From positions 43,587 to 107,586 of the forward strand of contig CAVTKZ010000004.1 in the NCBI GenBank assembly GCA_963735455.1: a stretch of DNA of 64,000 bases, read 5' to 3'. This document shows, one piece after another, positions 1,534-59,001 of the stretch (its first letter is position 1; each line of letters begins with the position of its first letter). The notes beneath the pieces are model-generated. The model was not told where the DNA came from, did not search any database, and saw only the letters and a program-made list of their open reading frames with translations. Made by a program: the position numbers and the translations under genes. The stretch comes from an uncultured Chloroflexia bacterium. GTDB lineage: Bacteria; Chloroflexota; Limnocylindria; Limnocylindrales; CSP1-4.

Positions 1534-1597
1534 GACTGGGTCGCGCGAAGGGCGGCAATTCAGAGAACTCTCATGAAGCCGGCCTAGACTGGGCTGC

Positions 1598-1981: not shown

Positions 1982-1985
1982 AGGC

Positions 1986-4013: not shown

Positions 4014-4088
4014 GCTCGAGCCGCCCAGCCGGCCCAGGGGGTACGGGACCCAGTCCGGCGAACCCACGAACGCCGTAGACTGATCCCA

Positions 4089-4421: not shown

Positions 4422-4425
4422 GAGG

Positions 4426-11714: not shown

Positions 11715-12488
11715 ATGGACATCGCGATCTTCGGAGACGGCCGGCTCGGGACCGAGATCGGCGACGCGCTCGGCGCGCGGTCGGGGATCCGGCCGACGAT
11801 CCTCGGACGCCCGTCGAACGGCCGCCACCCGAGCGCGTCGCTGGCCGGAATTGACCTCGTCTTCGAGGCCAGCGTGGGCAGCGCCGCGCGGGACAACATC
11901 GAGACGGCACTGGCCGCCGGCGTCCGCCGGTTCGTGATCGCGACGACGGCCTGGGCCGGCGACGAAGCGGCAGTCGAGGCCGCCCTCCGTCGGATGGACG
12001 CCGCGGCCGTCGCGACGCCGAACTTCAGCATCGGGGTCAACCTGTTCTTCCGGCTCGTGGACGCGGCCGTTGGGCTGTACGGGCCGATCGGCGCGTTTGA
12101 TCCCTACGTCCTCGAGTGGCACCACGCCGCCAAGGCCGACCGACCGTCGGGGACTGCCCGGGAGCTCCTGCGCCGCATCGTCGCGGCGCACCCCAGGAAG
12201 CGCGGGGCCCGCGACCCGGGCTCGGACGGGCCACCCGATCCCGGCCTGGTCGACGTCGCGGTCCTGCGGGCCGGCGCCGGCCCGGGGATGCACCTCGTCG
12301 GCTTCGACGCTCCGGGCGAGACGCTCGAGCTCCGGCTCACGGCCCGCGACCGCTCCGCCTATGCGACCGGCGCTCTCGCCGCAGGCGATTGGCTCATGGC
12401 CCAGCCGCGGAGTCCGGGCATCCATCCCTTCGACGAGGTCGTCGACCACCTGCTCGCGGCACCCCAACCATTCGCCGTTCCAGCCTGA
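11715..12488 (+). CDS. dapB: 4-hydroxy-tetrahydrodipicolinate reductase
   Basis: ATG 11715 is preceded by GGGGAGAG. Motifs: IAIFGDGRLG (NAD(P)-binding), TPNFSIGVNLF, LEWHHAAKADRPSGTA. Confidence 0.85.
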   Translation: MDIAIFGDGRLGTEIGDALGARSGIRPTILGRPSNGRHPSASLAGIDLVFEASVGSAARDNIETALAAGVRRFVIATTAWAGDEAAVEAALRRMDAAAVATPNFSIGVNLFFRLVDAAVGLYGPIGAFDPYVLEWHHAAKADRPSGTARELLRRIVAAHPRKRGARDPGSDGPPDPGLVDVAVLRAGAGPGMHLVGFDAPGETLELRLTARDRSAYATGALAAGDWLMAQPRSPGIHPFDEVVDHLLAAPQPFAVPA

Positions 12489-12514
12489 CCCCCAAGTCTG
12501 ACAAGGAGAATCCG

Positions 12515-13540
12515 ATGACTCGCTACACCCGCACAGCTCAGACCCAGCGGCCCGCTCTCCGTGGCGCGCTCACCGCGCTGGTCACCCCGTTCACCGCTGA
12601 CGGGTCCGTCGATGAGACGGCCTTCCGGCGGCTCGTCTCGTGGCAGGTCCTGGCCGGGATCGACGGCCTCGTCCCGTGCGGGACGACCGGTGAGGCTCCG
12701 ACGTTGAGCGCCGACGAACGCGACCGGCTGATCGAGATCACCCTCGAGGTAGCCGGCCAGCGCCCATCGCGCGAACGAATCGCGGTCGTCGCCGGGACCG
12801 GCACCAACGACACCGCGGCGACGATCGTGGCGACCCGCCGGGCGGCCGCCCTCGGCGCGGATGCCGCCCTGGTCGTCGGCCCCTACTACAACCGACCCGA
12901 CCAGCGGATGCTCCTGGGCCACTTCCGGGCGGTCGCCGACGAGGGTGACTTGCCGATCGTCGTCTACAACGTGCCCTCGCGGACGGGCTCGAACCTCGAG
13001 GCGGACACCTTCCTGCAACTTGCAGGCCATCCCCGGGTAATCGCGATCAAAGAGGCGTCTGGCAACCTCGAGCAGATCGCCCGGATCTGCCGGGAGCGGC
13101 CGCGCGACGTGGCGGTCCTGGCCGGAGACGACGCATGGACGCTCCCGGTTCTCGCGCTCGGGGGCAACGGCGTCGTGTCGGTCGCGAGCAACGAGATCCC
13201 GGGAGAGATGACCGCCCTGTGCGCGGCCGCCCAGGCCGGCGACTGGGACGAGGCCCGCCGGATCCACGATCGCTGGCTGCCCCTGATGCTGGCGAACTTC
13301 CGAGGTGGCCCGAACCCGGTGCCGGCCAAGGCTGCCTTGCTGGCGATGGGCCTGATCGGGTCCGACACGACGCGTCGGCCGCTCCTGCCGCTCGAGGTCG
13401 GTCCGCGCGAAGCATTGGCCGCGCTCCTGCGCACGCTGGGGCTGGTCGCGCCATCGGCAGGCCGGTCGAGTGAGCCGCGCCCTGCGACGGGTATCCCTGG
13501 CGGCGGAACCGCCGGGGCGGCAGAAGAGGCGGTCGCATGA
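12515..13540 (+). CDS. dapA: 4-hydroxy-tetrahydrodipicolinate synthase
   Basis: ATG 12515 is preceded by AAGGAGAA. Motifs: ALVTPF, LVPCGTTGE, VYNVPSRTG, IKEASGN (Schiff-base Lys). Confidence 0.9.
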   Translation: MTRYTRTAQTQRPALRGALTALVTPFTADGSVDETAFRRLVSWQVLAGIDGLVPCGTTGEAPTLSADERDRLIEITLEVAGQRPSRERIAVVAGTGTNDTAATIVATRRAAALGADAALVVGPYYNRPDQRMLLGHFRAVADEGDLPIVVYNVPSRTGSNLEADTFLQLAGHPRVIAIKEASGNLEQIARICRERPRDVAVLAGDDAWTLPVLALGGNGVVSVASNEIPGEMTALCAAAQAGDWDEARRIHDRWLPLMLANFRGGPNPVPAKAALLAMGLIGSDTTRRPLLPLEVGPREALAALLRTLGLVAPSAGRSSEPRPATGIPGGGTAGAAEEAVA

Positions 13541-14340
13541 TCGCCGCGACCGGCTCGCTCCTCGAGGATCTCGAAGCCGGGCGCCTGCGTGCGGCCATGC
13601 CCGATCCGGTCGCGCCGGATGGCTGGCGCGTCGAGCCGGCGGTCAAGGCGGCGATCCTCGACCAGTTTCGCGATCGCCAGACGTCGGATTGGGCCGCCGG
13701 CCCGCTGGCGTTCCGCGACCGGGTCGGCGTCCCACCCAAACGGCTCTTCGAGTCGCCCGACGGGCGCGCGGCCGATGCGGCCGGGCGCTCCTGGCGAGTC
13801 GTTCCGGGCGGGACGAGCATCCGGGCCGGGGTCCACCTGGAGCCGGGCGTCGTCGTCATGCCGCCGGCGTTCATCAACATCGGCGCCTGGATCGGCGAGG
13901 ACGTGATGGTCGATTCGCACGTCCTGGTCGGATCCTGTGCCCAGATCGGGGCGCGGGTCCACCTGGCCGCCGCCGTCCAGATCGGCGGGGTCCTCGAGCC
14001 GGCCGGCGCCCGGCCCGTGATCGTGGAGGACGATGCCTTCGTCGGCGCGGCGTCGTGCCTGCTCGACGGCGTGCTCGTGCGGGCCGGGGCGGTGATCGGC
14101 GCGGGCGTCGTCCTGACCGGGACCTCGACCCTCTACGACCTGGTCGCTGGCCGGATCCTGGCCGGGAGGACCGAGGCGCCCCTGATCGTGCCGGCCGGGG
14201 CGGTCGTGGTGCCCGGCTCGCGCCCGGCGCGGGGAGCCTTTGCCGAGCGCCACGGGCTGGGGATCGCGACGGCCCTGATCGTGAAGTACCGCGACGCTGG
14301 CACGAGTGCCCGGGTTGCGCTCGAGGGTGCGCTCCGATGA
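13537..14340 (+). CDS. dapD: 2,3,4,5-tetrahydropyridine-2,6-dicarboxylate N-succinyltransferase
   Basis: ATGA overlap with dapA. Left-handed beta-helix hexapeptide repeats are present (IGAWIGEDVMVDSHVLVGSCAQIGARVHLAAAVQIGGVLEP...VIVEDDAFVGA). Confidence 0.85.
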   Translation: MIAATGSLLEDLEAGRLRAAMPDPVAPDGWRVEPAVKAAILDQFRDRQTSDWAAGPLAFRDRVGVPPKRLFESPDGRAADAAGRSWRVVPGGTSIRAGVHLEPGVVVMPPAFINIGAWIGEDVMVDSHVLVGSCAQIGARVHLAAAVQIGGVLEPAGARPVIVEDDAFVGAASCLLDGVLVRAGAVIGAGVVLTGTSTLYDLVAGRILAGRTEAPLIVPAGAVVVPGSRPARGAFAERHGLGIATALIVKYRDAGTSARVALEGALR

Positions 14341-41386: not shown

Positions 41387-44300
41387 TCAGGTCGGGGCAG
41401 GGCTCTCGATCGAGGAGGACCCCGCGGTCGAGGCTCGCGGTGATCGAGCGAGGGCGGAGCCGGCGCTCGCGCCCGCCACGGCGTCGTCGAGGAGCTTGAG
41501 CAGCGCGACGGCCCCGATCCGGATGAAGATCTCGCGGGCCTCGTCAATCGCGGCCAGGGTGCCGGTGTCTGGAGGCTGGATCAGCGTGGCCCGAACGATG
41601 GCTGCGATGCCGAGGTCAAGCGTGTAGCCGATCCGGCGGTTGATCGCGGCCGAGCTCGTGAACAGGAGCGCCGCCTCGGCCGGCTGGCCCTCCATCGCGA
41701 GCCTGCAGGCGTCGAGCTCGGAGAGCAGGGAATCCAGGCGCAGCGAAGGCCCCATGCCCTCCGAGACCAGCCTGATCGCGGTTCGGATCCCGTCGATATC
41801 GCCGAGGAGCGCCGCGGCTCGGGCGGCGAGCCCGCCACTGTCGTCGATCGTTTCCCACGAAGCGGCCGCAGCCGCGATGGCGCCGGCGTAGGCATCGGCG
41901 TGGCGGCCTTCGCAGAACGCTAGCCAGGCGGGGGCCATGTCGGCAACGTAGGACACGGTCGTGGGATTCGAGCTGCCGGCGGTGGTTCGAATGGCCTCGG
42001 CGTAGGCGGCCCGGGTTCCGTCGAAGTCACCCCTGGCCGCCAGGATCTGGCCGCGCATGATCTCGTAGCCGGCGATCATGTCGTCCGGAGGGTCTCGCGG
42101 CTCGACGGCATCGATGTTGGCCAGCGCGCCGTCCCACTCGCCAAGGCCGAACTTCACGACGACCAGGAACCGGGAGAGGGCAAACTCCCAACCACCTTCG
42201 CCGAACCGACGGGCCAGGGCGATCCCGTCCTCGAGCAGCTGGCGGGCCTCGGTCGGATCGTCGGCGGCCACGAACCCGGCCAGGTTGTTGCGGGCGCGCA
42301 GGTTGGTCCCGGTCAACCCGCGCCGTTCGGCCAGGTCCAGGGCGCCGCGCAGCAGCGCCACCGCCTCGTACCAGCGATTGTCGTTGGCGAGGCAGGTCGA
42401 TTTCGAGATCAGGGCATTGGCGATCACGATCGCATCCCGGGCCCGGCCGGCGTATTCGAGGGCAGCATCGGCCGCTTCACGACCGGGCCCAGGCTCGCCG
42501 TGGAGCGAATACGCCCGGGCCAGCTCGGCGTGGAGCGCCCCAAGCTCGCGGTCCCCGACGTGCTCGCGGACCTCGTCGATCGCCTTCGTCAGGAGGGCGA
42601 TCGCAGGTTCGTTGAACGTCCCGTTGACCAGGATCCGTGAGCGCCCGACCAGCGCGTCGGCCAGCATCGACCAGGCGTTGTTCGCCCGCGCCCACGACTC
42701 GACATCGACGAAATACGCGGCGGCCGCATCGAACTGGGCGGCAGCTTCGGAGCTCCCGGCCGCGGCGAGGCGGAGCCCTGCCTGGTCGGCCTCGTCGGGC
42801 GTCACCTTGATCGCCTGGTCGAGGAAGCTGACGGCCTGGGCCTGGGACCCGAGCGCGATCGCCCGGTCAGCGGCGCTCCGGAGCGCGATCCGGGCCTGGC
42901 CGGCGAGCGCGTCGGCCTCCGGGCCCTCGGGCGCGTTCTGATGGGCGGCGAGGTAGTGGCCGGCAAGGGCTCCGGCGAGCTCGTCCGATCCGAGCGACTC
43001 GAAGTAGCGGGCCGCGGCCAGGTGGCGCGTCTTGCGATCGCGCTTGGCCAGCATCCCGTAGGCGACCTCGCGGATCAGGGCCTGGACGAAGGCATATTGC
43101 CCGCGCTCGGGCGAGCGTGGATCGCTGCCGACGGTGAGCAGCTCGCGCTTGACCAGGGCCTGCATCCGGGGCTTGATCGCGGTCTCGTCCTGGCCGCTGA
43201 CGGCGGCGAGGCCCGAAGGGGTGAAGCTCTGGCCGAGGACCGCCGCGTCGAGGATCAGGGCACGGTCTTCCGGCGGGAGGCCATCGAGCCGGGCGGCGAT
43301 CAGGGCGGTCAGCGTCTCGGGCACGGCGAGGGAGGTCAGGTCGCCGACCGGGACGTAGACGTCATCCTTGAGCGCCAGCTTGCCCTCGGCCAGGAGCATC
43401 CGGATCGTCTCGACCGCGTAGAGCGGGATCCCGTCGGCCCGGGCGATGATCGCCTTGACCGCGGCCTCGGGCAGGCCCGGGCACCAGGCCGGCGAGCATC
43501 TCGCGCATCGCGGCCTCGGGCAGCGGCTCGAGGTAGATCGAGGTGAAGTTGCGCTTGCCCGCGCCCCAGTCGGTCCGCCGCTCGAGGAGCTCCGGCCGGG
43601 CGAGGGTGACCACGTAGATCGGGTAGGCCCGCGACCACTCGAGGATGTGGTCGACGAAGTCGATCAGGCCCGAGTCCGCGTTGTGGAAGTCCTCGAAGAC
43701 CAGGACCACCGGCGCCGTCGCCGCGAGGCGCTCGAAGAACGTCCGCCAGGCGCCGACGAGCTGCTCCGGCGCGACGCCGGTCTCGACGCCGAGCAGGGCG
43801 AGGAGGGCCGGCTCGATCCAGCTCCGTTCCTGCTCGTCCTTGACGACCTCGCGGACCTTCGCGGCGACCTTTTCGCGGGTCGTGGCCTCGTCGTCGGTCT
43901 CGCGCAGGCCGCAGCGGGCGCGGATCATCTCGCCAAGGGCCCAGAAGCTGATTCCGTCGCCGTACGCCGGGCTGCGGCCCTCGTGCCACCAGAGCAGGTC
44001 GGCCAGGCCGTCGACGTACTTCAGGAACTCCCAGGCGAGCCGGGTCTTGCCGAAGCCGGCCGGGCCGATCACCGAGATCAGGCGGGCGCGGCCCTCGCGG
44101 GTCGTGGCGTGATACAGGTCTTTGAGCAGGCGCATCTCCTCGTCGCGGCCGACGAACGGGGCCTCGAGCGTGTCGCGCTTGTTGCGGCCGCCGACCTCGG
44201 CGACGACCCGCAGCGCGCGCCAGGCCTCGACCGGCGCCTGCTTGCCCTTGAGGTGCTGCTCGCCGGCCTTCTCGAAGGCGATCGCCTTGCTCGCGGCGCG

Positions 44301-44975
44301 TTGGGTTGCCTCGCCGACGAGGACCGTGCCCGGCTGGGCGACGCTCTGGAGGCGGCTCGCCGTGTTGACGAGGTCGCCGGCGACCATGCCCTGGTTCGTG
44401 GCGCCGAGCGTGACGGCGGCCTCGCCAGTGAGGACGCCGGCCCGGGCCTGGATCTGCGGGCCCAGGGTCTGGACCGCGTCGACGAGCTCGAGGCCCGCCC
44501 GGACCGCGCGCTCGGCGTCGTCCTCGCGGGCGACCGGGGCGCCCCAGACCGCCATCACGGCATCGCCGATGAACTTCTCGACGGTGCCCCCGTACCGGCC
44601 GATCACCTCGCGGGCGAGCTCGAAGTAGCGGTTCAGGAGCTCGCGGGTGTCCTCGGCGTCGTGGCCCTCGGCGATCGTGGTGAACCCGACGAGGTCGGCG
44701 AACAGAACGCTAACGAGGCGCCGTTCGGCGACGGGGGCCCGGGCGGTGTCGTCCAGGCTCATTGCGGCCGCTTCGACGGCGGCGGCCGAGGCGGTGCCGG
44801 TGGTCAGCGGCGAGGCGCACTCACCGCAGAAGAGGTCACCGGGGTCGTAGGCGGCGCCGCAATTCGGGCAGGCAAGCCCGAGAGGCGACGCGCAGCGAGC
44901 ACAGAACTTGCGCCCGGGCTTGTTCTCGGTTCCGCAGTTCGGGCAGATCACGCACGGAGCGTAGCCGAATCCCAT
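41387..44975 (-). CDS. double zinc-ribbon / class III cyclase / STAND AAA ATPase / TPR-like protein (paralog 2), split by a 1-nt insertion in the CCC run 43476-43478 (fragments 43362..45041 and 41387..43399)
   Basis: Zinc ribbons: CPNCGTENKPGRKFCARC...CPNCGAAYDPGDLFCGEC. Cyclase core: RRLVSVLFADLVGFT...GGTVEKFIGDAVMAVWGAP. P-loop: GPAGFGKTRL. Removing one base restores LVPGLPEAAVKAIIARADGIPLYAVETIRMLLAEGKL. Confidence 0.85.
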
Positions 44976-45180
44976 GGCTTGTGACCACTGCTGCCACGTG
45001 GCTGGGCGGCAGCTCCTGATGCGTCCGTACCGGAACATCATCGGCGCTGCCTTCCACTAGGACCTTGACGTCGCCCGGTCCCGATTGGCAATTGTTCGAT
45101 CGAGTGCACGATGTACCCTACGGGTGCCCATCGGGCTGGGCCATCGCCGCTTGTCAGGTTTGCAACTGGGGGGACCACCC

Positions 45181-46046
45181 GTGGTAGACAACCCACCGTT
45201 CGATGAGGAGTGTTTTTTCGTCGCCCCGATCGGCGCCGAAGGCAGTGAAGAACGCAATCGGTCCGACGGCGTCCTCGAATTCATCATCGAGCCAGCGGCA
45301 GCCGAACTTGGCCTCCGCGCACTGAGGGCAGATCGCACCGCGAAACCTGGGCAGATCACGCTGGAAGTGATGATCATCTTCTGTCTGCTAAGGCGGCCGT
45401 GGCGGACCTGACCGGCCAGAACGCCAACGTCTACTACGAGTTGGCGGTTCGGCACACAGCCCGACTACCGATTGTCCTGATTGCGGAGGATGGGGAAAAG
45501 CTGCCCTTCGATATCGTGCAAATGAGGACCGTGTTTTTCAGGCACAACGACCTAAGAAGCGCGGCCGCCTGCAGAAGAGAGCTTGTCGCTCAGCTTGGGC
45601 AAGCCCTACAGGGGAATTTCAATTCCCCGATCGCTACTGCGGTCGATGTCAAGAGCCTGAAGTCCGGCAATACCGTTGAGAGGACGGTCGTCGAACTCGT
45701 AGGTATCGTCGACGCATTGGGCGCCGAACTTCGAGAGACACACCTGGATTTTCGGCGTCTCGCGGCGGACCTCCAAGACAGGAGTGAATCCGCCGACGCG
45801 GCGGAATTCGCTTTACGGTCATTGCTCTTGATGGACGAATTAGCGGCACGCCGAGACGACAAGGAGCTCCAGGAGCTTGTCCGGCGAGCACGCGCACCCA
45901 TGGAGCACTTGGCTCGAACCCGTAGGCATCAGCGTGCCCGCGAGAGCGGCTCCGTCGAACGCGAAGATGGTCGACCTGAGTCGACCCCACTCAGGGTGAC
46001 TCTGGGCAAGCCCCCTGCAACCGGACCGTCGCGTCCCGGTCTCTAG
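45181..46046 (+). CDS. TIR-like / nucleoside 2-deoxyribosyltransferase-like Rossmannoid domain protein with a helical C-terminal half; 1-nt deletion near 45368-45375 (track fragments 45085..45411 and 45399..46046)
   Basis: Motifs: CFFVAPIGAEGSEE...VLEFII.PA....G...LRAD....PGQI, then (after frame repair) DHLLSAKAAVADLTGQNANVYYELAVRH..LPIVLIAEDGEKLPFDI. The pattern is that of NDT/TIR-like defence domains. GTG 45181 is proposed as the start. Confidence 0.5.
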
Positions 46047-46130: not shown

Positions 46131-49100
46131 GTGCCTGATGAGGTCTCACGAGTGACCGAGAGGCTGGACGCGGGCATCTACGAGGCCCTTGTAACTCGAG
46201 AACTGAGATCTCGGATCGAGCTGGCTCGCAAAGCCGGCAAGATCGTCGATCTCAAAGCGATTGATGAACAGGCCCTTGTACGAGTCCTAGCCAGGCACCT
46301 CTATGATCGAGCGCTCGACCGGATCTCTCAAATCCCGGCATCGACGCCAGCCCGGCGAGAAGTCCAGATCGCTCTCGCGAATCGGCTCCTTCGCGAGCTC
46401 AACGACTCAGCCGACGACGAACTTGGGCCTGAGCCCGACTTTCTTCTAGAAGTCGCCGATCCGCGTCCTTCGGGCAGCAATGAGCCGACGCAACGCCCCG
46501 GGATCTCACTGCGCGAAAGTGTTCTCCTGACCAACGGGCATCGCGAGCTCCAGATTGGCACCCAGGTAGCTCTCGAAATTGCCAGCGCAGATCGGGTCGA
46601 CCTTCTATGTGCGTTTGTCCGATTCGCCGGCATTAGGCTCATTCGGAAGGAATTGGCAGAATTCCTTGTCCGCGGCGGGCAGATGCGCGTAATCGCCAGC
46701 GTCTATACAGGTTCGACCGAGAAACGGGCGCTCGACGACCTTGTCGGCCTGGGCGCCAGGGTCAAAGTTTCCTATGAGACCTCGAGGACACGACTGCACG
46801 CCAAGGCCTGGCTGTTCGGGCGCAATTCCGGGTATCAGACGGCATATGTCGGGTCGTCGAATCTCACCGCCTCCGCGCTTCTTGACGGTCTCGAGTGGAA
46901 TGTTCGAGCGACGTCTGTAGACAACCCCACGATCATCGAGCGGATCGACGCGACCTTCGAGCAGTATTGGAACGAGCCGGAGTTCGAGTCCTACGACCCG
47001 CGTGTCGATGGCGAACGGCTCCAGGCTGCGCTCGACGCCGAGAATGGGCCTGCGACGCTCCAAGCCCCGTTCCGGCTGTCAGTCGATTTGGCGCCGAAAC
47101 CATTCCAGGTCGAGATCCTTGAAGCGTTGAGCGCCGAACGTGACCGTGGTCACTTCCGGAACCTTGTCGTGGCGCCGACAGGAACTGGGAAGACATGGAT
47201 CTCCGCGTTCGACTTCCAAAGGCTCCGAGCCCAGGGCTATGAGCGGCTCCTCTTCGTTGCCCATCGAAACGAGATCCTCCAGCAAAGTCAGGAGGTGTTC
47301 CGCGCGGTCCTGCACGAGCCCGACTTTGGCGAACGATTCGTCGCGTCCGAACGACCGAAGCACTGGGATCACGTCTTCGCCTCGATTCAATCGTCGAGTC
47401 GAGCCGTCGACGAGCTGGATCCCACCGCGGTTCGATGTGGTGATCATCGACGAGTTCCACCACGCCGAGGCGGACACGTACCGGCGTCTCCTCGAACGCC
47501 TCAAACCGCGCGTTCTGCTGGGCCTCACGGCGACGCCCGAGCGATCAGATGGGCGCGAAATCCTGCACTGGTTCGATGACCGAATCGCCTCGGAAATGCG
47601 GCTCTGGGAGGCTCTGGAGGACGGCCTGCTCTGCCCATTCCACTACCTCGGTGTCGGCGACGGCACGGACCTCCGTGGCGTTGGATTTGAGCGGGGACGC
47701 TATGTCGCGGCCGAGCTGGAAGGCATCCTGACCGGAGACCATATTCGGGCTACCCGGATCATCGACTCGGTCCGTGAATGGGTGGTCGACCCATCCAAGA
47801 TGCGAGCGCTAGGGTTCTGCGTCGGCATCAGCCATGCCCGTTTCATGGCGCAGCAGTTCACCGCGGCCGGCATGCCATCTGTTGCGCTCGACGGGAGCTC
47901 AGATGCCTCCGTCCGGGCAGAGACCGTGCGTCAGCTTCGCCGAGGCGAGATCCGAGCGATTTTCACGGTCGACATCTTCAACGAAGGGATCGACATTCCT
48001 GAAGTCGACACAATCCTGCTCCTGCGTCCAACTGAGAGCGCGACGGTCTTTCTCCAGCAGCTCGGCCGCGGTCTCCGTTGGTCCGAAGGCAAGAGCGTTC
48101 TGACCGTTCTCGATTTCATCGGCCAGGCTCACGCTGAGTACCGCTTCGATACGAAGTTCCGAGCCTTGCTCGGCGGAACGAAGAGGCAGGTCGAGGGGGC
48201 CCTGGATGGCGGGATGCCGCTCATGCCTCCCGGTTGTGCGATCCGGCTTGATGAAATCGCCCAGAAGATCGTTCTCGACAACCTGCGCCAGAGCATCAAG
48301 ACCACGCGGCGGGCAATAGTCGAAGACCTTCGCGGAATGCCGGCGGCGACGACCCTGCCCGAGTTCCTGGCTGCGAGTTCGTTCGACCTACTCGACGTCT
48401 ACAGCAACCCCTCGGTCGGGACGACGTTCACGGCGGCACGGCGCCTGGCGCGTCGGATTACTGATGCCCCGAGTGCAACCGAGGAGATGTACGCCAAGGC
48501 CCTCGGAAAGATGCTCCACATCGACGACGAGGAGCGCTATGCGCATTGGCGCACCTGGCTCGGCAATGAGGAGCCGCCTGGGACTGCTGTCTCCGGTTCT
48601 CGGACGGAGCGACTTCAGTGGATGCTCTTTGCCGCTCTCGGTCAGCGCCAGCGTCCGCTGACGCAGCTCAGGGCCGTGTTTGAGGAGCTTTGGGCCGCGC
48701 CGAGGATGAAGGAAGAGCTGATCGATCTCCTCGATGTCCTTCGAGAGAGGACTCGGCTATACACGCGGCCGCTCGATCGGGCCGGGGACATTCCACTTCA
48801 CAGCCACGCGACCTACAACCTCTACGAAATAATGGCGGCCTACGGCCTCGTAGGCGGAGAGTCGCTCCGCGAAAACCGTGAGGGCGTCGTGTGGTCCGAA
48901 GCTCATCGGACCGACATATTGTTGGTCACCCTCAACAAGTCGGAATCCGACTACTCGGCGACGACTCGGTATGAGGACTACCCGATCTCGCAGACCAGAT
49001 TCCACTGGGAATCCCAGTCGCGGACTGCCAGCGCATCGCCGACCGGGCAGCGCTACATCAACCACGTGGCTCGTGGATCTCAAGTCGTCCTCTTCATCCG

Positions 49101-49263
49101 GGAAAATCGTCGCGACGAACGGGATGTGACCACCCCATATTTGTGTCTCGGGTATGCCCGGCATGTGGGTCATAAGTCAGATCGACCAATGCAGGTCGAC
49201 TGGGAGCTCGAACGCCCCATGCCCGTCGAGATCTTCGAGCATGCCAAAGTGGCCGCGGGCTAG
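46131..49263 (+). CDS. PLD-family nuclease / SF2 (ResIII-type) helicase / DUF3427-type C-terminal domain protein, with a 1-nt insertion near 47421-47430 (track fragments 46131..47579 and 47140..49263)
   Basis: PLD motifs: RLHAKAWLF...GSSNLT. Helicase motifs: APTGTGKT, IIDEFHHA, LTATPER, QQLGRGLR. The C-terminal FHWESQS...VVLFIRE...YLCLGYA pattern matches what I recall of DUF3427. Confidence 0.85.
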
Positions 49264-49318: not shown

Positions 49319-50092
49319 TCAAGCGGGGGAGGTCAGGAGCTCAACCGCCAGGCCTGGATCGCCGCCGAGGTCTCGCTTGCCGCGGCAACCATTCGTGACA
49401 CATCGAAACCACCAACCACGCTCGGAGTGGCCAAGCGTCATAGGTGACTGACAGATCGGGCACGGCTCAACTCTCCGGGCCTTCTCGACCCGAGCGAGCA
49501 GATCGGCATTGTCGATCAGCGACAGACCGACCTGTTTGGCCTCCTCCCGGGCTTGTGGCGTGAAGTCCGACAGGGTCACGAAGATCCCATCAGGTCCCGC
49601 CAGCCCCTCGCGCATCAGGGTGCCCGCGAATGCGCGGACCTCCTCTACGCCGACGAGCCATGACTGCCACCGCTTGCACTGAACAATGATCCGTCGACCA
49701 AGCTGGGTGAGCGCGAGGTCGATGTTCCCGTCGGGACCGTCCTGGCGTCCAGTCTCCTCCACCGTCCAGCCTTCGCGCCGGAACACCTCGCCGACAAGCC
49801 ACTCGAACTCCTCGGCGGTCAGCAAACGAAGATTCGATGTCCATTCGACAAGGTGGCGACGGTTCGCCGCCCGGATTCGCTCGCCAAGCCAACCGAGGAT
49901 CAAGCCGGCCGCAATGGAGGTCCCGACGAGGTTCGCTGAGATCAGCCAGGGATCAGACCACTGAAGGCCCACGGGCAAGATCAGACCGATGCCGACATAC
50001 GAGATGGCCGCGACGATCCCGATCGATCGCCCCGACGCCCGAGTCACGACGCTCATCAAGGCCCGATCGAAAAGAGCGTCGAGTCTGCCCAT
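49319..50092 (-). CDS. membrane-anchored Mrr-like restriction endonuclease with a C-terminal zinc ribbon
   Basis: Two N-terminal TM helices. Mrr_cat-like core: EFEWLVGEVFRREGW...DGNIDL...IIVQCKRW. C-terminal zinc ribbon: CPICQSPM...FRCVTNGC. Confidence 0.8.
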   Translation of the reverse strand: MGRLDALFDRALMSVVTRASGRSIGIVAAISYVGIGLILPVGLQWSDPWLISANLVGTSIAAGLILGWLGERIRAANRRHLVEWTSNLRLLTAEEFEWLVGEVFRREGWTVEETGRQDGPDGNIDLALTQLGRRIIVQCKRWQSWLVGVEEVRAFAGTLMREGLAGPDGIFVTLSDFTPQAREEAKQVGLSLIDNADLLARVEKARRVEPCPICQSPMTLGHSERGWWFRCVTNGCRGKRDLGGDPGLAVELLTSPA

Positions 50093-50146: not shown

Positions 50147-51917
50147 ATGGAGGACCGGGGGATCCTGGGCTCAATGCCACGTGAATCTGCGCGCGAGGCG
50201 CGTGGCGCGATCGCCGAACGCCTGGTGTTCGATCGCCTTCGGGCGGTACTGCCGGTGAGCGTCGCGCTGCTTCCCCACGTTCGCTGGCTCCTCCGCGAAA
50301 ACGGTCGCGTTCGCGAGGGAGAGGCGGACATCGTGATCGGCGATCCCAAGCGGGGAATCCTGGTGATCGAGGTCAAGGCCGGCGAGATCCGGCGGGACGC
50401 CGACGGTCGTTGGTGGGCTGGGCCGCACCCGCTGCCGCGCAGCCCGTTCGAGCAGGCGGCGGACAGCCGCCATTCGCTGATCGACAAGCTGCAGGAGTTG
50501 CCGGGCTGGCCGGGGCGTCTGACCCCGATCTCGGGCCATGCGGTCGCATTTCCGCACGTCGAGATGGACACGATGCGCGGTCGGCTCGGCCTGCTCGGGC
50601 CCGATGTTGATGCCGACCTGATCGCCGACCAGTCGACCTTCGTCGACACCGACGCGGGTCGCGCCGAGCTCGGCAGCTTCGTCGACCGGGCATTCGAGGC
50701 CTGGAGCGGCGGGTCGAAGACCCAACCGCCGGGCAAGGTGGCGATCGACCTCCTCGTCGCCACGATGAGCGCGCCCTTCGAGATCACGCCGATGCTCCGC
50801 AACGAGATCGCGGAGGGCGAGTCGAAGGTGGTCAAGCTGACCGCCGAGCAGTTCAGCCTCCTGAACACGCTCCGGAGCATTCGCCGGGCGTCGATCATCG
50901 GCGGCGCAGGCACCGGCAAGACACTGATCGCCGCCGAGAAGGCGCGCCGGCTCGCTCGCGAGGGCTTCCGGACGCTACTTGTGTGCTTCAACTCGCCGCT
51001 CGCCGGAATGCTTGCTGACGAAGTCGCCAAGACCGCCGACGAGACGGGAATGCTCGACGTCAACACGTTCCATCAGCTGTGCGAGGACCTCGGTCGCGAG
51101 GCCGGCGTCCTCGGTCCGCGGCCGACGCCGGTGCGCCAGCCGTGGTTCGACGAGACGCTCCCGCGCGCGCTCGACGACGCGATCGCGAAGCTCGGTCCGC
51201 GCTACCACGCCATCGTGGTGGACGAGGGCCAGGACTTCGACCCCGGCTGGCTACTCTCGCTCGAGGGGCTGCTGTTCGACGGCCGGCAGGACGTCCTGTA
51301 CGTCTTCCACGATCCGGCCCAGGCACTGTTCCGCGAGGACTCGGTCCCGGGGCTCGGGTTAAACGAATATCCGCTCGCGATCAACTGCCGGAACGCGGAG
51401 CCGATCCATGCGCTGATCCAGCGCTTCGCGGGGGAGGGGTTATCGGCCGAAGCACTCCGCCGGGACGGCCGCGCGCCAGAGCTGATCGAAGCCGATGGAC
51501 CCCAGGCGACGATCAAGGCGCCTCCAGAAAGTCCTCCATCGACTGCGCGTCAACGAAGGCGTCAAGCCCTGGGATATCGCGGTCCTGACCGGGGCCGGCT
51601 CGAGGATTCGCCCGTTTCGGCACGTGCCCGGCCGCCAGTTCGGCAACGAGGTCCTCGGCAACCCCGCGGTCGACGATGCAGGTCGCAGCCTCGGCGTGGC
51701 GTCCCGGGACGTGCCCGAGCTCCCGTCGGACATGATCCTGTTCGACACGATCCGCCGCTTCAAAGGCCTCGAGCGGCCGGTGATCATCCTCGTCGAGCTC
51801 AGCAGCGACGACTCGAAGATGCTCGACCGGCTGCTCTACGTTGGTGGATCGAGGGCTCGCCAGCATTTGGTCGCGATCGGCACCACCGAGGTGCTCGCTC
51901 GGCTTTCACGCGGCTAG
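50147..51917 (+). CDS. NERD-domain / UvrD-like (SF1) helicase, with a 1-nt insertion near 51517-51521 (track fragments 50147..51925 and 51495..51917)
   Basis: NERD motif: EADIVIGDPKRGILVIEVKAG. Walker A GGAGTGKT and Walker B VVDEGQDF. After frame repair: LQKVLHRL...WDIAVLTG...FDTIRRFKGLERPVIILV (UvrD_C-like). Confidence 0.8.
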
Positions 51918-51953
51918 CTGGTTAACTCGCGTGCGTTGTCTGATCGGAAGGCC

Positions 51954-54029
51954 CTAATGCCCTGCGTAGGAGCGCCTCGCGGACATGCGTCGCGAGTCTC
52001 GCAATGAGGCGGACGATGTGAGCGCGAGTAGGCCAGCCCGATCGAGCTGCTTCAGACCAAGCGTCGACACCTGCGCGCGCTCCAACGATGCTGGGTACAG
52101 ATCGGCCGGTAGTGCGTCGGCGATGTCCGACACCGACCGTTTTCCGTCCGCTGCAACCAGAAAGTACGCCAACAATGGGCTAACCCGAAGGGTCTCGACC
52201 CGCGAACCATACGGCCGGGTGACGACGAACGACGGGCGCTCCACCTCTGGGCCGGGCGTGGCGCCGGTCCGGAGGCAATCCATGATTGCCCCGATGTCGT
52301 AAGCGAGCGACAGCACACGAACGTGCGGATACGGCCGGGGAATCGAGTCGACAATCGGACCCCAATCAGGCTCATCCTCACGTATTGCTAGATCGAGTTT
52401 TCTCGAATACTCAAGCACCCCTTTGATCGTGGGACTGCTCCCGCGAGCATCGGACCATCGCTCGACGAAAGCCAGGAAGGCTTGTGTCCACTCGATCGAG
52501 CCGTAAAGCTTGGCCCGGCCCGCGTCGTCCAGCCCGACTCCCATCGTGCGGCCAAAGTAGCTCTGCCAGTCCTCGAATAAGTCGAGTACGTCCCCATACT
52601 GTTGTCGAATGGCGACGAGGAGCCACCGGTGGCGGGCGATCAGCCCTTTCAGGAAGAGGCGCAATTCCTGGACGTATGCCCGATCCAAGTGCGCCAGCGG
52701 AAGGCTAAAGAAGCTCACGAAAATGTCAGGATGTGCCTCAATGAGCACTCGGTCGAGGTCCTCCTGAACCCAACCGGAATGCGACAGGTCTGGGTAAGTC
52801 GCACCAAGGATCAGGGCGGATCGGTGCTCGGCCTCGAGTGACGTTCCGTTCAATGGCGTAAGGATGTGCAGTTGCGGATCGACGAGGTCTTCCCTCAGGA
52901 GATCCACCAGCAGGTTGGCAGTGGCTCTCGTGTCTTCCCTCGTCTCTTCGGGGAACCCTAGGATCAAGGACGTTGTCGTTTGAATTCCCCGACGAGCGGC
53001 TTGCCGCACGCGATCGGCGGCGACATCCAAGTTTAGATGTTTATCGATGACCTCCTGAAGGTCAGCCGATCCTGACTCCAGCCCAAAGAAGATTCCACGG
53101 CAGCCCGCCTGGCTCATCAAGTCAATCAGTCCTTCGTCGATCCGGTCGGTCCGTGAGCTGCAATACCAAGTGAAACCCGCACTCTGCTGGATCAGCAAAT
53201 TGCAAAAGTCGACAACCTTGGTGCGATTTGCTGTGAACATGTCATGCACAAGATCGAAGGCACTGACGCCATACCGCGCATTTAGACTCTGCATCTCCTG
53301 GAGGACTCGTCCCGGCGACTTAACGCGGAAACGTCGACTGAAAAAAGAGCTGGTCGAGCAGAAAGTGCAAGCGAATGGGCATCCGCGGCCCAACTCGATG
53401 GGCACATAAGCACCCGCTCGCAGGTCCTCGAAGAGGTGAAAGGCCGGTGGTGGGAGCAAATCCAAATCGGTTAGCAGTGTCGCGTCGGTGTTTCGCACTA
53501 CTTCTGGGCCAGATCGGTACGAGAGTCCAGGCACGGCACCGAAGGTGCGATGGTCCTCGAGCGACTGGACAAATCGCGGGAATGTCTCGTCACCCTCGCC
53601 CCGGACGACCGCGTCGATCCATGGAAACTGTTTCAGTGTCGCTTCATCCACGACCGACGCTTGGGGGCCTCCGAAGACGATCACAGCATCCGGTCGCTCG
53701 ACTTTGAGCGCCTGCGCCACGCGGATCGTAAACGGATAGGTACTCCACATGGTGCTGAACCCGAAAACATTCGCACCCGTGGCACAAAGCTCCGAAACGA
53801 CATGTGAGGCGAACGAGACTCGCTGACTGTCCGACGGATGCAAGTACTCGTAGAGGACACGATTCAAGTCAATGGCAACTGGAGCGTGGCCGGAACGTTC
53901 TAGGGCAGAAGCGAGTGTAAGGATGCCGAGAGGAGCACTCTGCACACGAAGTGCTGCCGCCTCCGGAGCCGAAAGCGAGGTATCTCGGAGCTCGGTGATC
54001 GACGGAGGACTAACCAGGCACACTTGCAT
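51954..54029 (-). CDS. B12-binding-domain (class B) radical SAM enzyme with a roughly 230-aa C-terminal extension containing a PqqD/RRE-like segment
   Basis: The N-terminal cobalamin-domain pattern is VCLVSPP...APLGILTLASALERSGH...VFGFS...VIVFGGPQAS...DAVVRGEGDETF. The radical SAM cluster motif is GCPFACTFC. The C-terminal tail contains LLAYFLVAADGKRSVSDIADAL...LKQLDRAGLL. Confidence 0.9.
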   Translation of the reverse strand: MQVCLVSPPSITELRDTSLSAPEAAALRVQSAPLGILTLASALERSGHAPVAIDLNRVLYEYLHPSDSQRVSFASHVVSELCATGANVFGFSTMWSTYPFTIRVAQALKVERPDAVIVFGGPQASVVDEATLKQFPWIDAVVRGEGDETFPRFVQSLEDHRTFGAVPGLSYRSGPEVVRNTDATLLTDLDLLPPPAFHLFEDLRAGAYVPIELGRGCPFACTFCSTSSFFSRRFRVKSPGRVLQEMQSLNARYGVSAFDLVHDMFTANRTKVVDFCNLLIQQSAGFTWYCSSRTDRIDEGLIDLMSQAGCRGIFFGLESGSADLQEVIDKHLNLDVAADRVRQAARRGIQTTTSLILGFPEETREDTRATANLLVDLLREDLVDPQLHILTPLNGTSLEAEHRSALILGATYPDLSHSGWVQEDLDRVLIEAHPDIFVSFFSLPLAHLDRAYVQELRLFLKGLIARHRWLLVAIRQQYGDVLDLFEDWQSYFGRTMGVGLDDAGRAKLYGSIEWTQAFLAFVERWSDARGSSPTIKGVLEYSRKLDLAIREDEPDWGPIVDSIPRPYPHVRVLSLAYDIGAIMDCLRTGATPGPEVERPSFVVTRPYGSRVETLRVSPLLAYFLVAADGKRSVSDIADALPADLYPASLERAQVSTLGLKQLDRAGLLALTSSASLRDSRRMSARRSYAGH

Positions 54030-54054
54030 GTGTCGCCCCCAGACAGTGGTGGGC

Positions 54055-54315
54055 CTATCCCCGCTTCTTGTATCTGGCCACGAGCGCTGGCAGCTGGGCA
54101 GACTTGTCGAGGGTTAGGTCACCAACTCGGATTGGCGCTGCGGGACCGCTCACTGAGTGGATCTTGAAGTCCTCACTCGGAGTGTGAGTCGCATACGCGA
54201 ACTCCAGCACGCTGAGCCGGAGCGCCTCGGTAAGGTACTTGGCTTCGTCGTCGGTCAGCTGGTCCGGGATCTCCACCAAGAGGGAGACGGCGCGCGGCTT
54301 TTCCTTGGATGCCAT
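54055..54315 (-). CDS. 86-aa hypothetical protein, candidate substrate or partner of the radical SAM enzyme
   Basis: A strong SD (AAAGGAGGGG, with GGAGG 8 nt from the ATG). The stop lies 25 nt upstream of the rSAM start on the same strand, and GC is as low as in the rSAM gene. No Cys; an acidic amphipathic N-terminal half; a basic C-terminus (ARYKKRG). No family recognised. Confidence 0.6.
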   Translation of the reverse strand: MASKEKPRAVSLLVEIPDQLTDDEAKYLTEALRLSVLEFAYATHTPSEDFKIHSVSGPAAPIRVGDLTLDKSAQLPALVARYKKRG

Positions 54316-54665: not shown

Positions 54666-55761
54666 ATGAGCATCGCTTCTCGGCGTGTCATCGCGCTGGC
54701 TGCGGCCATGTTCGCGATGGCGGCCTGCGGCGGCGGAGCGCAGGCGAGCCCAAGCGGCGGCGGAGTGCAGGTGAGCCCAAGTGCCGGCGCGCCGGCCGCG
54801 ACCGCCACGCTTGCTACCCCCTCGGCGGCGGCACTCGGGTCCGCGGTCCCTGCGACGGCCCGCCCCGTCGAGCCCATCGCGTCGATCAAGGTCGGCAATC
54901 TCGCCAACGGCATGGCCGCCGGCCCGACGGGTCTGTGGGTCGTCACCGATGCGGGTCTCGTCCGGATCGATCCCGCGACGAACCAGGTCGCGACGTCCTT
55001 TGCGCTAACGGCAACCACCGACAGCTATCAGTTGGCGGTCACTAGCGACGCGCTCTGGCTGACCGTCTTCGACTCGGACCTCGTCAAGCGGCTGGACCCG
55101 GTCACTGGCAAGACGGTCGCTACCATCGCCAGCCCGCCGGGTCCGGGCCCGATCGCCACGTACAACGGGGAGGTCTGGTTCGGCGGCCACCACGCCGGGA
55201 ATATCAACCGGATCGACCCCGAAGACGAACAAGATCGTCGCGACGGTGCCGGTCAACCCGTCAGGAAATGGCGGCCCGGACAACATCGTGCCGATCCAAG
55301 GGAGCCTGTGGGTCGGGTTCGGCGACTACGCGAAGGTGGTGGAGATCGATCCCAAGTCCGCGAAAGTGACCGCCACCGTCGCCGTCCCCGACACCAACAC
55401 GATGCCGTTCGAGGCCGCTCCAGGCCGCATTTGGGTGTCCTACGCCGGCGACATCCAAGGGATCGCCGTGCTCGATCCCAGCTTGAACGGCGCCCCACAC
55501 CTGATCGACGTCGGGGGCGTTCCAGGCGGCGGAATCTTCACTGGCGGCGCGGTCTGGGTGTCGGTCCTGCTCCATTCCTCGAACCCCCCGGGCGAGCTCG
55601 TGGCGATCGACCCGACGACGAACGCGATCGTGGACAGGGTCACGGTCGCCGATGGTGCGCCCGACCAGGTCCTGGAGGCGTTCGGTTCCATATGGGTCGA
55701 GCTCGGCCTGCAGGGCACGATCGTTCGCCTCGCGCCGGCGGCGCTCACGGTCTCGCCCTGA
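54666..55761 (+). CDS. secreted lipoprotein with beta-propeller-type repeats, with a 1-nt insertion in the C-run 55217-55220 (track fragments 54378..55766 and 55246..55761)
   Basis: Met at 54666 with a lipobox (FAMAAC|G). Repeated ...W.....G.L.RIDP.TN.V blades (LVRIDPATNQV, LVKRLDPVTGKT, INRIDP|KTNKIV after repair, VVEIDPKSAKV, LVAIDPTTNAI). Confidence 0.6.
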
Positions 55762-57738: not shown

Positions 57739-59001
57739 GTGGTCTTTCCGGCCGGCTGGGACCGACACGACCCTTGGACGCTCCAATTCACTGATCCGAA
57801 CCTGGAGCGCTCCTACCAGCGTGCCGACGAGGTCGAAGGCGTGCGTCGCACCCGGACCGCCAGCCTGGGTGCCGTCGTCGTCTGGTTGCTCGTCGGCCTG
57901 ATCGGCCCGCCGGCGATTGGGACCGCACCCGGCCCGGTCTGGCTCATCTCGGGGGTGATGACGGCGGTCTTACTCGCCTGCGCCGGACTGAGCCACTGGG
58001 CGACGACCCAGCGGCGGCGCGACGCGATCGGGCTCGGCCAGCAACTCATCGCCGGCGTGGCGGTGCTGGCCTTGGTCACGGTGACGGGAACCTTCTCGAC
58101 CTACGGGATGCCCGGGGTGATGCTCACGGCGGTATTCGGGTTCTCGATCACCCGAACGCCGTTCGTGGGTTCGGTCGCCCTGGGGGCCGCCTACTGCCTG
58201 CTCTTCCTGCTCTTTGCGCTGGGCCGCGGGCTCGGGGCACAGTTGCCCCTCCAGCTCTTCGTGGTCGGCGCGACCGTGGTCTGTGGCTGCGCCGGGGCGT
58301 TCCTCCTTGAGCGATCGCAGCGCGCGGCCTTCGCCCAGGGCCAGCTCGTCGGCGCCCTGCACGAACGAGTCGACCAGCTGCTCCACCAGTACCTCTCGCC
58401 CGACGTGGCGAGCGCGCTGATCGAGGATCCCGGCCGGGCCGCCCTTGGTGGCGTCGAGGTCGAGGTGACCGTCCTCTTTGCGGACCTGCGCGGCTATACG
58501 AGCTGGGCCGAGCACCGCACGCCGGCCGAGGTCATGGCGATGCTCAACCGGGCGTTCGGGATCGTCGTGCCGATCGTGCTCGCCGATGGTGGCGCCGTCG
58601 TCCAGTTCATCGGCGACGCGATCATGGCCATCTGGAATGCCCCGACGCCGCAACCCGACCACGCCCTGCGGGCCGCCCGGGCGGCGCTCGCGATGCAGGC
58701 CGCCATCGCCGAGCTGCCTGAGTCGCTCGGGCGGCCGCAGTTCCGCGTCGGGCTGAGCAGCGGACCCGCCCTGGTGGGCAACATCGGCGCGGCCCAGATC
58801 CGGAACTTCTCGGCGATCGGTGATACGACGAACCTTGCCGCTCGGCTGCAGACGTTCGCGCCCGTGGGCAGCGTGGTGATCGCCGCCAGCACCTATGAGC
58901 TCATCGGCGAATCGGCGGATGTCCGGCCGCTCGGTGCACCGGCGCTCAAGGGCAAAGCGGATTCAGTTGAGGTCTACGAACTGTTGGGCTTGCGATCCTG
59001 A
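57739..59001 (+). CDS. membrane-bound class III adenylate/guanylate cyclase (about 6 TM helices plus catalytic domain)
   Basis: Catalytic core: VTVLFADLRGYTSWAE...GGAVVQFIGDAIMAIWNAP...RVGLSSGPALVGNIG...FSAIGDTTNLAARL. Confidence 0.85.
   Translation: MVFPAGWDRHDPWTLQFTDPNLERSYQRADEVEGVRRTRTASLGAVVVWLLVGLIGPPAIGTAPGPVWLISGVMTAVLLACAGLSHWATTQRRRDAIGLGQQLIAGVAVLALVTVTGTFSTYGMPGVMLTAVFGFSITRTPFVGSVALGAAYCLLFLLFALGRGLGAQLPLQLFVVGATVVCGCAGAFLLERSQRAAFAQGQLVGALHERVDQLLHQYLSPDVASALIEDPGRAALGGVEVEVTVLFADLRGYTSWAEHRTPAEVMAMLNRAFGIVVPIVLADGGAVVQFIGDAIMAIWNAPTPQPDHALRAARAALAMQAAIAELPESLGRPQFRVGLSSGPALVGNIGAAQIRNFSAIGDTTNLAARLQTFAPVGSVVIAASTYELIGESADVRPLGAPALKGKADSVEVYELLGLRS

Follow-up and report, generated by a model that had tools for sequence, protein, structure and literature searches.

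A conserved two-gene cassette pairs a precursor-like small protein with a radical S-adenosylmethionine enzyme that ends in a predicted peptide-recognition domain

In a 64,000-nucleotide (nt) stretch of DNA from an uncultured Chloroflexia bacterium (assembly GCA_963735455.1, contig CAVTKZ010000004.1, positions 43,587 to 107,586), hereafter the window, two adjacent minus-strand genes encode a protein of 86 amino acids (aa) and a 691-aa cobalamin (B12)-binding radical S-adenosylmethionine (rSAM) enzyme fused to a RiPP recognition element (RRE; RiPP, a peptide made on ribosomes and modified after translation). We found this pair to be conserved and inherited together across phyla, and we propose that the 86-aa product would be the substrate of a self-contained, horizontally acquired RiPP-type maturation cassette. 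We judge it very likely that the enzyme uses its RRE to modify the small protein encoded next to it and, provided that it does, methylation is the likely chemistry. The complete proposal, that is, leader-guided and probably iterative C-methylation of the small-protein core by the RRE-fused B12-rSAM enzyme, is moderately likely by analogy with characterized maturases. A first-pass annotation of this DNA, made from the letters alone, could not map the module to any described system. Nonetheless, it fits a described kind, namely RRE-dependent peptide modification by B12-rSAM enzymes, and is best described as an uncharacterised family that would work like the known B12-rSAM RiPP methylases yet lies outside the ApyD, Mpc and proteusin systems.

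The two open reading frames (ORFs) are co-directional and both full length. That of the small protein (MASKEKPRAVSLLVEIPDQLTDDEAKYLTEALRLSVLEFAYATHTPSEDFKIHSVSGPAAPIRVGDLTLDKSAQLPALVARYKKRG) spans 54315-54055 and that of the intact enzyme 54029-51954, with a 25-nt spacer (GCCCACCACTGTCTGGGGGCGACAC) in between. This layout agrees with the first-pass description, as does the Shine-Dalgarno sequence GGAGG at 54328-54324 of the minus strand, 8 nt 5' of the small-ORF ATG. Neither a promoter nor a convincing terminator could be seen around the cassette, and the window contains no tRNA and, according to Rfam, neither a riboswitch nor any other RNA. No other 2.4 kb of the window is as low in GC as the cassette, whose GC content is 0.59 vs 0.71 over positions 1-45000 and whose third-codon-position GC is 0.67 vs ~0.9 in native-looking genes. 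The ranking proposed earlier thus stands, whereas the hand counts given for it (28-29 of 60 letters) lie below the gene-wide mean.

The cobalamin-domain N-terminus and CPFACTFC cluster motif recognized at first reading were both confirmed, and the Pfam models of the two domains score above their gathering thresholds. A cobalamin-binding Rossmann-like domain, with a fold like that of cobalamin-dependent rSAM enzymes, occupies residues 31-153 (53571..53939, minus strand; PF02310, 52.9 bits, cut-off 32.1), and the rSAM core follows at residues 211-374 (52908..53399, minus strand; PF04055, 72.6 bits, cut-off 29.5). The three Cys residues of the [4Fe-4S] motif (C217-x3-C221-x2-C224; 53358-53381, minus strand) are invariant in 56 homologues. 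Indeed, the enzyme keeps all 72 invariant positions of the family alignment and is therefore probably functional. Among NCBIfam families the best match is ApyD (346.3 bits, E 3e-103, residues 33-451), which also ranks first for 56 of the 56 homologues; BchE (148 bits), TIGR03975 (134 bits) and HpnJ (132 bits) come far behind, and HpnR, PhpK and BzaD are likewise among the weaker matches. An AlphaFold2 model built with the 56 homologues reached a predicted local distance difference test (pLDDT) of 89 and a predicted template modelling (TM) score of 0.88. In Foldseek searches with this full-length model, TokK (PDB 7kdx/7kdy) and CysS (9n1b) gave the best superpositions (TM 0.58-0.60 over ~660-690 aligned columns), followed by OxsB, TsrM, AprD4 and MgmA. 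By domain content and modelled fold we assign the enzyme to class B of the rSAM superfamily, that is, to the predicted users of cobalamin.

The ApyD-like catalytic region ends at about residue 451, and some 240 residues follow it. The first part of this extension (residues 450-550; 52380..52682, minus strand) is a family-specific bridging region modelled as long helices with pLDDT of ~85-94. The second (about residues 565-670; 52020..52337, minus strand) models as a winged-helix RRE. The ApyI RRE model of NCBIfam matches residues 515-667 of the window enzyme (E 2e-5) and 33 of the 56 homologues (best E 3e-11), while PF05402 (PqqD) matches 20 of the 56. A separate model of residues 556-691 (pLDDT 91) displayed a strand-strand-strand-three-helix topology, and its top Foldseek matches in the PDB were TglI, PqqD and the leader-bound lasso-peptide B1 proteins TfuB1 and TbiB1, with target-normalised TM of 0.59-0.70 and modest E-values (3e-3 to 0.7). 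The segment LLAYFLVAADGKRSVSDIADAL...LKQLDRAGLL, which the first-pass annotation had taken for a PqqD/RRE-like signature within ~230 aa beyond the rSAM core, corresponds to helices 1 and 3 of this domain. A Pfam scan of the isolated C-terminal 291 residues returned nothing, and no DUF5825 or DUF4080 match appeared at E up to 10; the RRE is visible only through homologues, NCBIfam and structure; a profile of the C-terminal region compared with PDB sequences yielded a sub-threshold PqqD match alone (E 0.24). Collectively, the profile matches and the models identify the C-terminal domain as an RRE, that is, a peptide-docking fold.

The cassette is not the orphan it had been called. A profile of the family-specific C-terminal 250 residues, which include the bridging region, was run against 1.84 billion representative proteins (50%-identity clusters) and retrieved 462 clusters at E <= 1e-3, 245 at E <= 1e-10 and 94 at E <= 1e-30, i.e., a family of several hundred such clusters whose full-length enzymes measure 645-773 aa. 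Each of the four closest relatives with available DNA (enzymes 47-49% identical to that of the window) carries, directly upstream on the same strand, a homologous 82-87-aa ORF that is 36-42% identical to the small protein in the MAFFT alignment and 35-40% in pairwise global alignments; in a fifth close relative, an 86-aa ORF was called at the same position. Distant relatives almost always have a co-directional ORF of 57-102 aa ending 0-280 nt upstream of the enzyme gene. By our own count, the upstream small ORF is present in ~37 of ~40 distinct loci (labelled L and a number, with coordinates of their own). At least four phyla are represented, and the hosts include Streptomyces, Kitasatospora, Bradyrhizobium, many Acidobacteriota and an Actinomycetota metagenome-assembled genome (MAG). 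The ORF is doubtful or missing in L020 and in L037 and L038, which are truncated and more distant matches from Chloroflexota and Armatimonadota. All-against-all clustering of the flanking ORFs revealed that the small ORF is the only one conserved family-wide.

Several lines of evidence indicate that these upstream ORFs belong together and evolve with the enzyme. Leaders of the window's clade and of a clade with IPDxGLSK leaders align with each other (hhalign P 2.3e-4, columns 1-38), and ~8 of 12 weak non-self matches of the clade hidden Markov models (HMMs) were upstream ORFs, although only ~35 of these were included in the searched pool of 3768 six-frame ORFs. Divergence of the enzymes correlates with that of the small ORFs (Mantel rho 0.29, a value reached by 0 of 2000 permutations). 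In addition, small-protein genes occur in tandem in L029 (3494-3979) and in L025 and L026 (3529-3970), with near-identical leaders and differing cores (e.g., VPISTWELPPPP vs VPIIVMELPPPP); in L025 and L026, a frameshift seems to affect the second copy. The Streptomyces members contain no TTA (bldA) codons. In all sources, the small proteins are annotated as 'hypothetical protein'; NCBIfam and Pfam hold no model for them, and no curated model was found for the enzyme clade. Full-text literature searches with keywords and motif strings, whose coverage leaves out many subscription papers, returned no description of the family.

The 86-aa protein has no Cys, terminates in ...YKKRG and matches nothing in Pfam, NCBIfam, PADLOC or the PDB, which confirms the earlier remark on its lack of Cys and of a recognised leader family. 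A word-indexed search with this protein alone retrieved only itself, its homologues having come from genomic context, and the small-protein profile found nothing meaningful in the PDB. Across 30 family precursors, the architecture runs from a basic N-terminus through a short beta-strand-like motif, an amphipathic helix and a linker to a beta-branched strand. The strand-like motif often ends in Pro-Asp (VVLTIPD, SLLVEIPD), and the helix follows the pattern LSKxQIxxLKKxFxNxxV. Neither the window peptide nor any of the 30 precursors matches a Pfam or NCBIfam family, and no NHLP/Nif11-type leader was recognized in them by these models. An automated strand-spacing measure was discarded as too crude, because in many cases it took the helix for the second strand.

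In the window protein, a putative leader extends over residues 1-48 (54172..54315, minus strand) and comprises the basic N-terminus, a beta-strand-like AVSLLVEIP-D and the amphipathic helix TDDEAKYLTEALRLSVLEF, as judged from the hhalign comparison and, for the secondary structure, from sequence pattern. The putative core, residues 49-64 (DFKIHSVSGPAAPIRV; 54124..54171, minus strand), combines the beta-branched strand KIHSVSGPAAPIRV with a clade-specific GPAxPIR motif and is the proposed site of modification; K51, G57, P58, A59 and R63 are unchanged in the MAFFT alignment of the five-member clade, and the corresponding position of other clades is occupied by Val/Ile-rich strings. A C-terminal follower, residues 65-86 (GDLTLDKSAQLPALVARYKKRG; 54058..54123, minus strand), exists only in this clade, where it is partly conserved (P76). 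The terminal strand varies from clade to clade, as in VKVSVTVSVGF, IEVRISVSVGF, IIIRIRIRIIIVLGEF, VVIIRIRVVRQIAQV, IVVVVVVVIVFQRAKV and LVIVVKDEGW, and other loci have further Val/Ile-rich core strands such as IIIRIRIRIIIV, VVVVVVVVIV and ARRR-IVVVVVVVIV. Overall, the cores consist mostly of Val, Ile and Thr, to which the clade of the window adds Pro, and neither Cys nor any aromatic residue is conserved in them.

In RRE-dependent pathways, precursor and maturase are by established knowledge recognized by a leader that is conserved, a core that is hypervariable, tandem gene copies and an RRE fused to the neighbouring enzyme. From the occurrence of all these traits in the present family, we infer that the small protein is a precursor and the neighbouring enzyme its maturase, in support of the first-pass suggestion that the substrate is a peptide or protein and the 86-aa product the candidate. 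This suggestion came through all three in silico refutation tests that were run: homologues of the enzyme do keep an adjacent small ORF, the C-terminal region resembles an RRE by PqqD and ApyI matches and by Foldseek instead of a non-peptide-binding domain of the DUF4080 type, and the enzyme lies nearest to ApyD and not to a lipid or cofactor methylase, BchE and HpnJ scoring far lower. The same data bear on the alternative that the enzyme acts on a lipid, a cofactor or another small molecule, next to an upstream ORF that is unrelated or accessory. Many B12-rSAM relatives do act in this manner, among them HpnJ, HpnR, BchE, PhpK and BzaD, and the small protein belongs to no recognisable family. 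We nonetheless consider this alternative extremely improbable, given that the fused RRE is a peptide-docking domain, that the small ORF is the only gene conserved beside the enzyme across phyla and co-diverges with it, and that tandem copies, as well as a leader that is conserved beside a core that is hypervariable, typify RiPP precursors.

In the mechanism that we propose for the precursor-maturase pair, the leader, with its beta-strand, Pro-Asp and amphipathic helix, would dock on the C-terminal winged-helix RRE and thereby bring KIHSVSGPAAPIRV, the beta-branched strand, to the active site of the cobalamin-dependent rSAM domain. Methylcobalamin would supply methyl groups for side-chain carbons that are unactivated, with C-beta of Val, Ile or Pro as the most plausible target and probably in more than one round, after the pattern of ApyD, MpcBC and PoyC, and the product would be a more hydrophobic peptide or small protein. 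Since the cores are mostly saturated and beta-branched and are free of conserved Cys or aromatic residues, we infer that C-methylation, probably iterative, is the most likely chemistry.

Comparison with characterized systems further delimits this proposal. ApyD is the nearest named enzyme, while in function clavusporin MpcBC and polytheonamide PoyC come nearest. ApyD, of the aminopyruvatide pathway of Burkholderia thailandensis, is an RRE-containing B12-rSAM enzyme that puts one methyl group on C-beta of a precursor Tyr (PMC10635010). It is the best-scoring named family (NF050148), has the same architecture of B12-binding domain, rSAM core and RRE as the window enzyme, and itself acts on a ribosomal precursor at an unactivated C-beta. 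However, the score of the window enzyme, 346 bits, compares with an equivalog cut-off of 750 bits, so the enzyme is a relative of ApyD that falls outside the ApyD family. The match covers model positions 25-439 of 645 and leaves the C-terminal 240 residues unaligned. Besides, no MNIO (ApyH), ApyI, P450 or ApyS is encoded in the flanking ORFs of the window, the window precursor lacks the C-terminal Asp and the Tyr-x-Tyr motif, and the single methylation of ApyD falls on Tyr, whereas the cores of the present family are aliphatic.

The clavusporin system of Streptomyces clavuligerus (MpcA/MpcB/MpcC/MpcP/MpcT) resembles the family in the nature of its substrate. Together with the DUF5825 protein MpcC, MpcB adds as many as eight beta-methyl groups to the Val, Ile, Thr and Pro residues of the clavusporin core KPSVGITITVPFR, a reaction that requires the leader, and 'short' Mpc precursors display alternating or seven consecutive Val/Ile residues after Arg (PMC10849626). 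A B12-rSAM enzyme thus acts there on a short Val/Ile/Thr/Pro-rich core, and the 'short' precursor cores closely resemble cores of the present family (VKVSVTVSVGF; ARRR-IVVVVVVVIV). This feature is clear in other clades, whereas the window strand KIHSVSGPAAPIRV has Ile, Val and Pro but is less hydrophobic. On the other hand, MpcB has a CX7CX2C motif and a separate MpcC, vs CX3CX2C, a fused PqqD-type RRE and no DUF5825 match in the window enzyme, a comparison based on the published description of MpcB rather than on a sequence alignment. The leaders also differ in length (~45 aa in the window vs ~17 aa in MpcA), and neither the window neighbours nor the conserved neighbours of the homologues include a DUF5825, S9 peptidase or MFS gene. 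A tblastn match on the S. clavuligerus megaplasmid (H11) was rejected as MpcB; it is a different B12-rSAM protein of 502 aa with no MpcA core nearby.

Two further groups of methylases were considered. PoyB and PoyC are class B rSAM C-methyltransferases that act repeatedly on Val/Ile of a ribosomal peptide to give tert-leucine and related residues; PoyC, with the motif CX7CX2C, methylates Val and Ile in polytheonamide (PMC11285071). The window enzyme scores 134 bits against TIGR03975 (rSAM_ocin_1), below the cut-off of 282 bits, and the window locus contains none of the NHLP/Nif11-type leaders, epimerases, dehydratases and N-methyltransferases of proteusin pathways. Of the best structural matches, TokK and CysS are, like TmoD, iterative methylases and carry out sequential methylation on sp3 carbons. 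They differ from the window enzyme in acting on carrier-linked small molecules, in lacking an RRE and in sharing only 15-18% identity with it. The Val/Ile-modifying cyclopropyl synthases TvgB and TigE, at first considered as possible relatives, were dismissed because the literature describes them as rSAM-SPASM enzymes without a B12 domain.

These comparisons also bear on whether the same enzyme might subject the same core to a non-methylating radical reaction, such as cross-linking (C-C or C-heteroatom), rearrangement or desaturation. The rSAM class at hand does include the ring-contracting OxsB and the cyclising BchE, both among the matches of the enzyme, as well as PbsB, a B12-rSAM enzyme acting on RiPP precursors that cross-links ortho-Tyr residues instead of methylating them, and the conserved GPAxPIR of the window's clade could mark a specific site-directed reaction. 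Nevertheless, we regard non-methylating chemistry as unlikely: the family cores, mostly saturated and beta-branched, lack the aromatic and thiol partners of known cross-links, the closest characterized relative, ApyD, is a methylase, and TokK and CysS, which methylate iteratively, are among the best structural matches. PbsB is compared here by its published description; its target residues and partner enzymes are absent from the window locus.

Some observations do weigh against methylation of the small protein. AprD4 is the top PDB sequence match over the rSAM core, and it is a B12-independent member of the same fold, while the use of B12 by the window enzyme is a prediction. The chemistry is assigned by analogy for every member of the family, and the core of the window's clade is less Val/Ile-rich than those of most clades and carries the conserved GPAxPIR. 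The CX3CX2C motif, set against the CX7CX2C of PoyC and MpcB, makes the enzyme part of a separate clade and not an orthologue of these methylases. Homology of the precursors across clades is weak for single sequences (E 0.4-9 in HMM searches), and no protease or transporter gene lies among the window neighbours of the cassette. Lastly, PbsB, the B12-rSAM enzyme of biphenomycin-like RiPPs, makes a C-C cross-link (PMC12257519).

Both a protease and a transporter had already been reported missing beside the cassette, and neither was found in the window. With no dedicated protease or exporter at the locus, the product may stay uncleaved, that is, it may be the whole small protein, or host enzymes may process it. 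Recurrent partner genes do exist in other clades. In seven loci, a convergent gene for a retropepsin-like Asp protease of ~146-165 aa (PF13650, PF13975) lies just downstream of the rSAM gene (L004 10245-10685; L007 4899-5345; L008 6010-6507; L009 6066-6539; L034 6070-6537; L044 9057-9542; L045 9162-9602). This protease, a candidate leader peptidase, occurs only in the clade with IPDxGLSK leaders and poly-Ile/Val(/Arg) cores and is absent from the window. Twenty-one Acidobacteriota loci (L011, L015-L016, L018-L033, L035 and L036), which represent several orders of the phylum, instead encode a co-directional Ser/Thr kinase-PD40 protein (~900-995 aa) ~300 nt upstream of the precursor gene, with an extracytoplasmic function (ECF) sigma factor further upstream in seven of them. 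The kinase-PD40 protein, also absent from the window, may form with the sigma factor a regulatory module for the cassette.

Two of the protease-bearing loci lie in mobile contexts. In L045 (Streptomyces agglomeratus), the precursor, rSAM and Asp protease genes are located between genes for a phage-type integrase, a DDE transposase and a Replic_Relax relaxase (1218-5116, 12421-13983) and therefore inside a mobile element; in L044, an IS110 transposase is encoded nearby. A variant upstream ORF of 102 aa was observed in L043 (6652-6960), where a signal resembling those of twin-arginine translocation (RRAVIRGAFAVGGASVLA) precedes the family leader motif QIPDLCLTADQLEQLRKAFENTLVTNMG and the protein ends in a short Cys-containing tail, CESPPS, not in a Val/Ile strand; PMT_2 glycosyltransferases, methyltransferases and a 2-oxoglutarate-Fe oxygenase are encoded around it.

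The window cassette itself is embedded among genes of defence type, as pointed out in the first-pass annotation. On the plus strand, a PLD-ResIII-DUF3427 type IV methyl-directed restriction enzyme is encoded at 46131-49263 (Pfam; PADLOC mREase_IV PDLC03659), followed by Mrr (49319-50092) and, on the plus strand, a NERD-UvrD helicase (50147-51925) that best matches the PADLOC model of the DRT-associated NERD helicase. These three assignments hold, whereas the TIR label is thin: the 215-aa ORF at 45399-46046 (plus strand) has no Pfam match, and it is its first 50 residues that weakly match a PADLOC TIR effector model (E 2e-5). Proteins with adenylate/guanylate-cyclase domains bracket the island at 43362-45041 (minus strand) and 57739-59001 (plus strand). 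The left one combines double zinc ribbons, the cyclase domain and AAA_16, and gave weak matches to PADLOC PycC (Pycsar cyclase); with a native GC of 0.72, its gene probably belongs to host signalling and not to the island.

Three frameshifted genes flank the intact cassette. The restriction enzyme is split in two overlapping ORFs across which the model positions continue from 324 to 331 at ~47400-47416, a continuity that indicates a frameshift, due either to gene decay or to an assembly error. The helicase gene changes frame between ~51430 and 51720, and its true C-terminus (UvrD_C_2) is found in the ORF 51495-51917. On the other side, a divergent gene at ~54666-55761 (plus strand) for a putative lipoprotein (signal MSIASRRVIALAAAMFAMAAC) with beta-propeller-like repeats shifts frame near 55230-55250. 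Similar frameshifts within the rSAM gene of the MAG loci L029, L031, L032, L034 and L036 make long-read indel errors one explanation.

This setting raises the alternative that the cassette is itself a conflict or defence module, in which the modified peptide or the activity of the enzyme is directed against phages or competitors. The cassette sits between the side with Mrr and the NERD-UvrD helicase and other genes of a low-GC island that also has the type IV PLD-helicase enzyme, the weak TIR match and, at its edge, the PycC-like cyclase, and some relatives are found in mobile regions (L045 and L044). PADLOC, in turn, gave a single weak match for the enzyme and none for the small protein. The matching model, the 420-position B12-rSAM model of the candidate PDC-M51A, shows that at least one B12-rSAM enzyme has been proposed as a component of a defence candidate; the match scored 71 bits, below the 148 bits of the generic B12-rSAM match to BchE, and so reflects only superfamily similarity. 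Furthermore, no nuclease, helicase, restriction or other defence gene recurs beside the homologues in the ~40 loci, compared without a formal enrichment test; the neighbours are metabolic, regulatory or clade-specific genes, such as those for the Ser/Thr kinase-PD40 protein, the ECF sigma factor and the Asp protease. In base composition the cassette departs from the host genome, and its GC content of 0.59 also sets it apart from the defence genes next to it (0.61-0.69), which suggests separate acquisition into a variable region, and horizontal transfer of this kind is the simplest reading. A defence function is hence highly doubtful. The defence setting is real in the window but no property of the family, and the link to conflict systems that had been drawn from it was not borne out and is probably incidental.

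A bolder version of the peptide-modification proposal would make the family a new RiPP class defined by an autonomous two-gene unit in which an RRE-fused cobalamin rSAM enzyme heavily C-methylates one strand of a small beta-alpha-beta protein, or alters it by other cobalamin-radical chemistry, with no cleavage or export by dedicated machinery, and which in this genome was captured by a defence island, perhaps as a conflict effector. Taken as a whole, this is distinctly improbable. If true, the extremely hydrophobic or amphipathic strands that it predicts (poly-tert-leucine-like, or with alternating Arg and Ile) would be surfactants, membrane-active agents or self-assembling materials.

For genome annotation, the window cassette illustrates that two genes may lie together in a defence island without making up a defence system, and as yet no curated model would recognize either the precursors or the enzyme clade. 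To our knowledge, heavily C-methylated ribosomal peptides come from very few systems, the polytheonamides and the clavusporins, both products of multi-gene clusters. The present family would be a two-gene, RRE-fused version of such systems whose cores come in hundreds of natural variants, runs of 8-10 Val/Ile among them. As such, it would offer a compact system for the study and engineering of methylation at unactivated carbons, and soil Acidobacteriota and Actinomycetota could yield peptides of unusual hydrophobicity through it.

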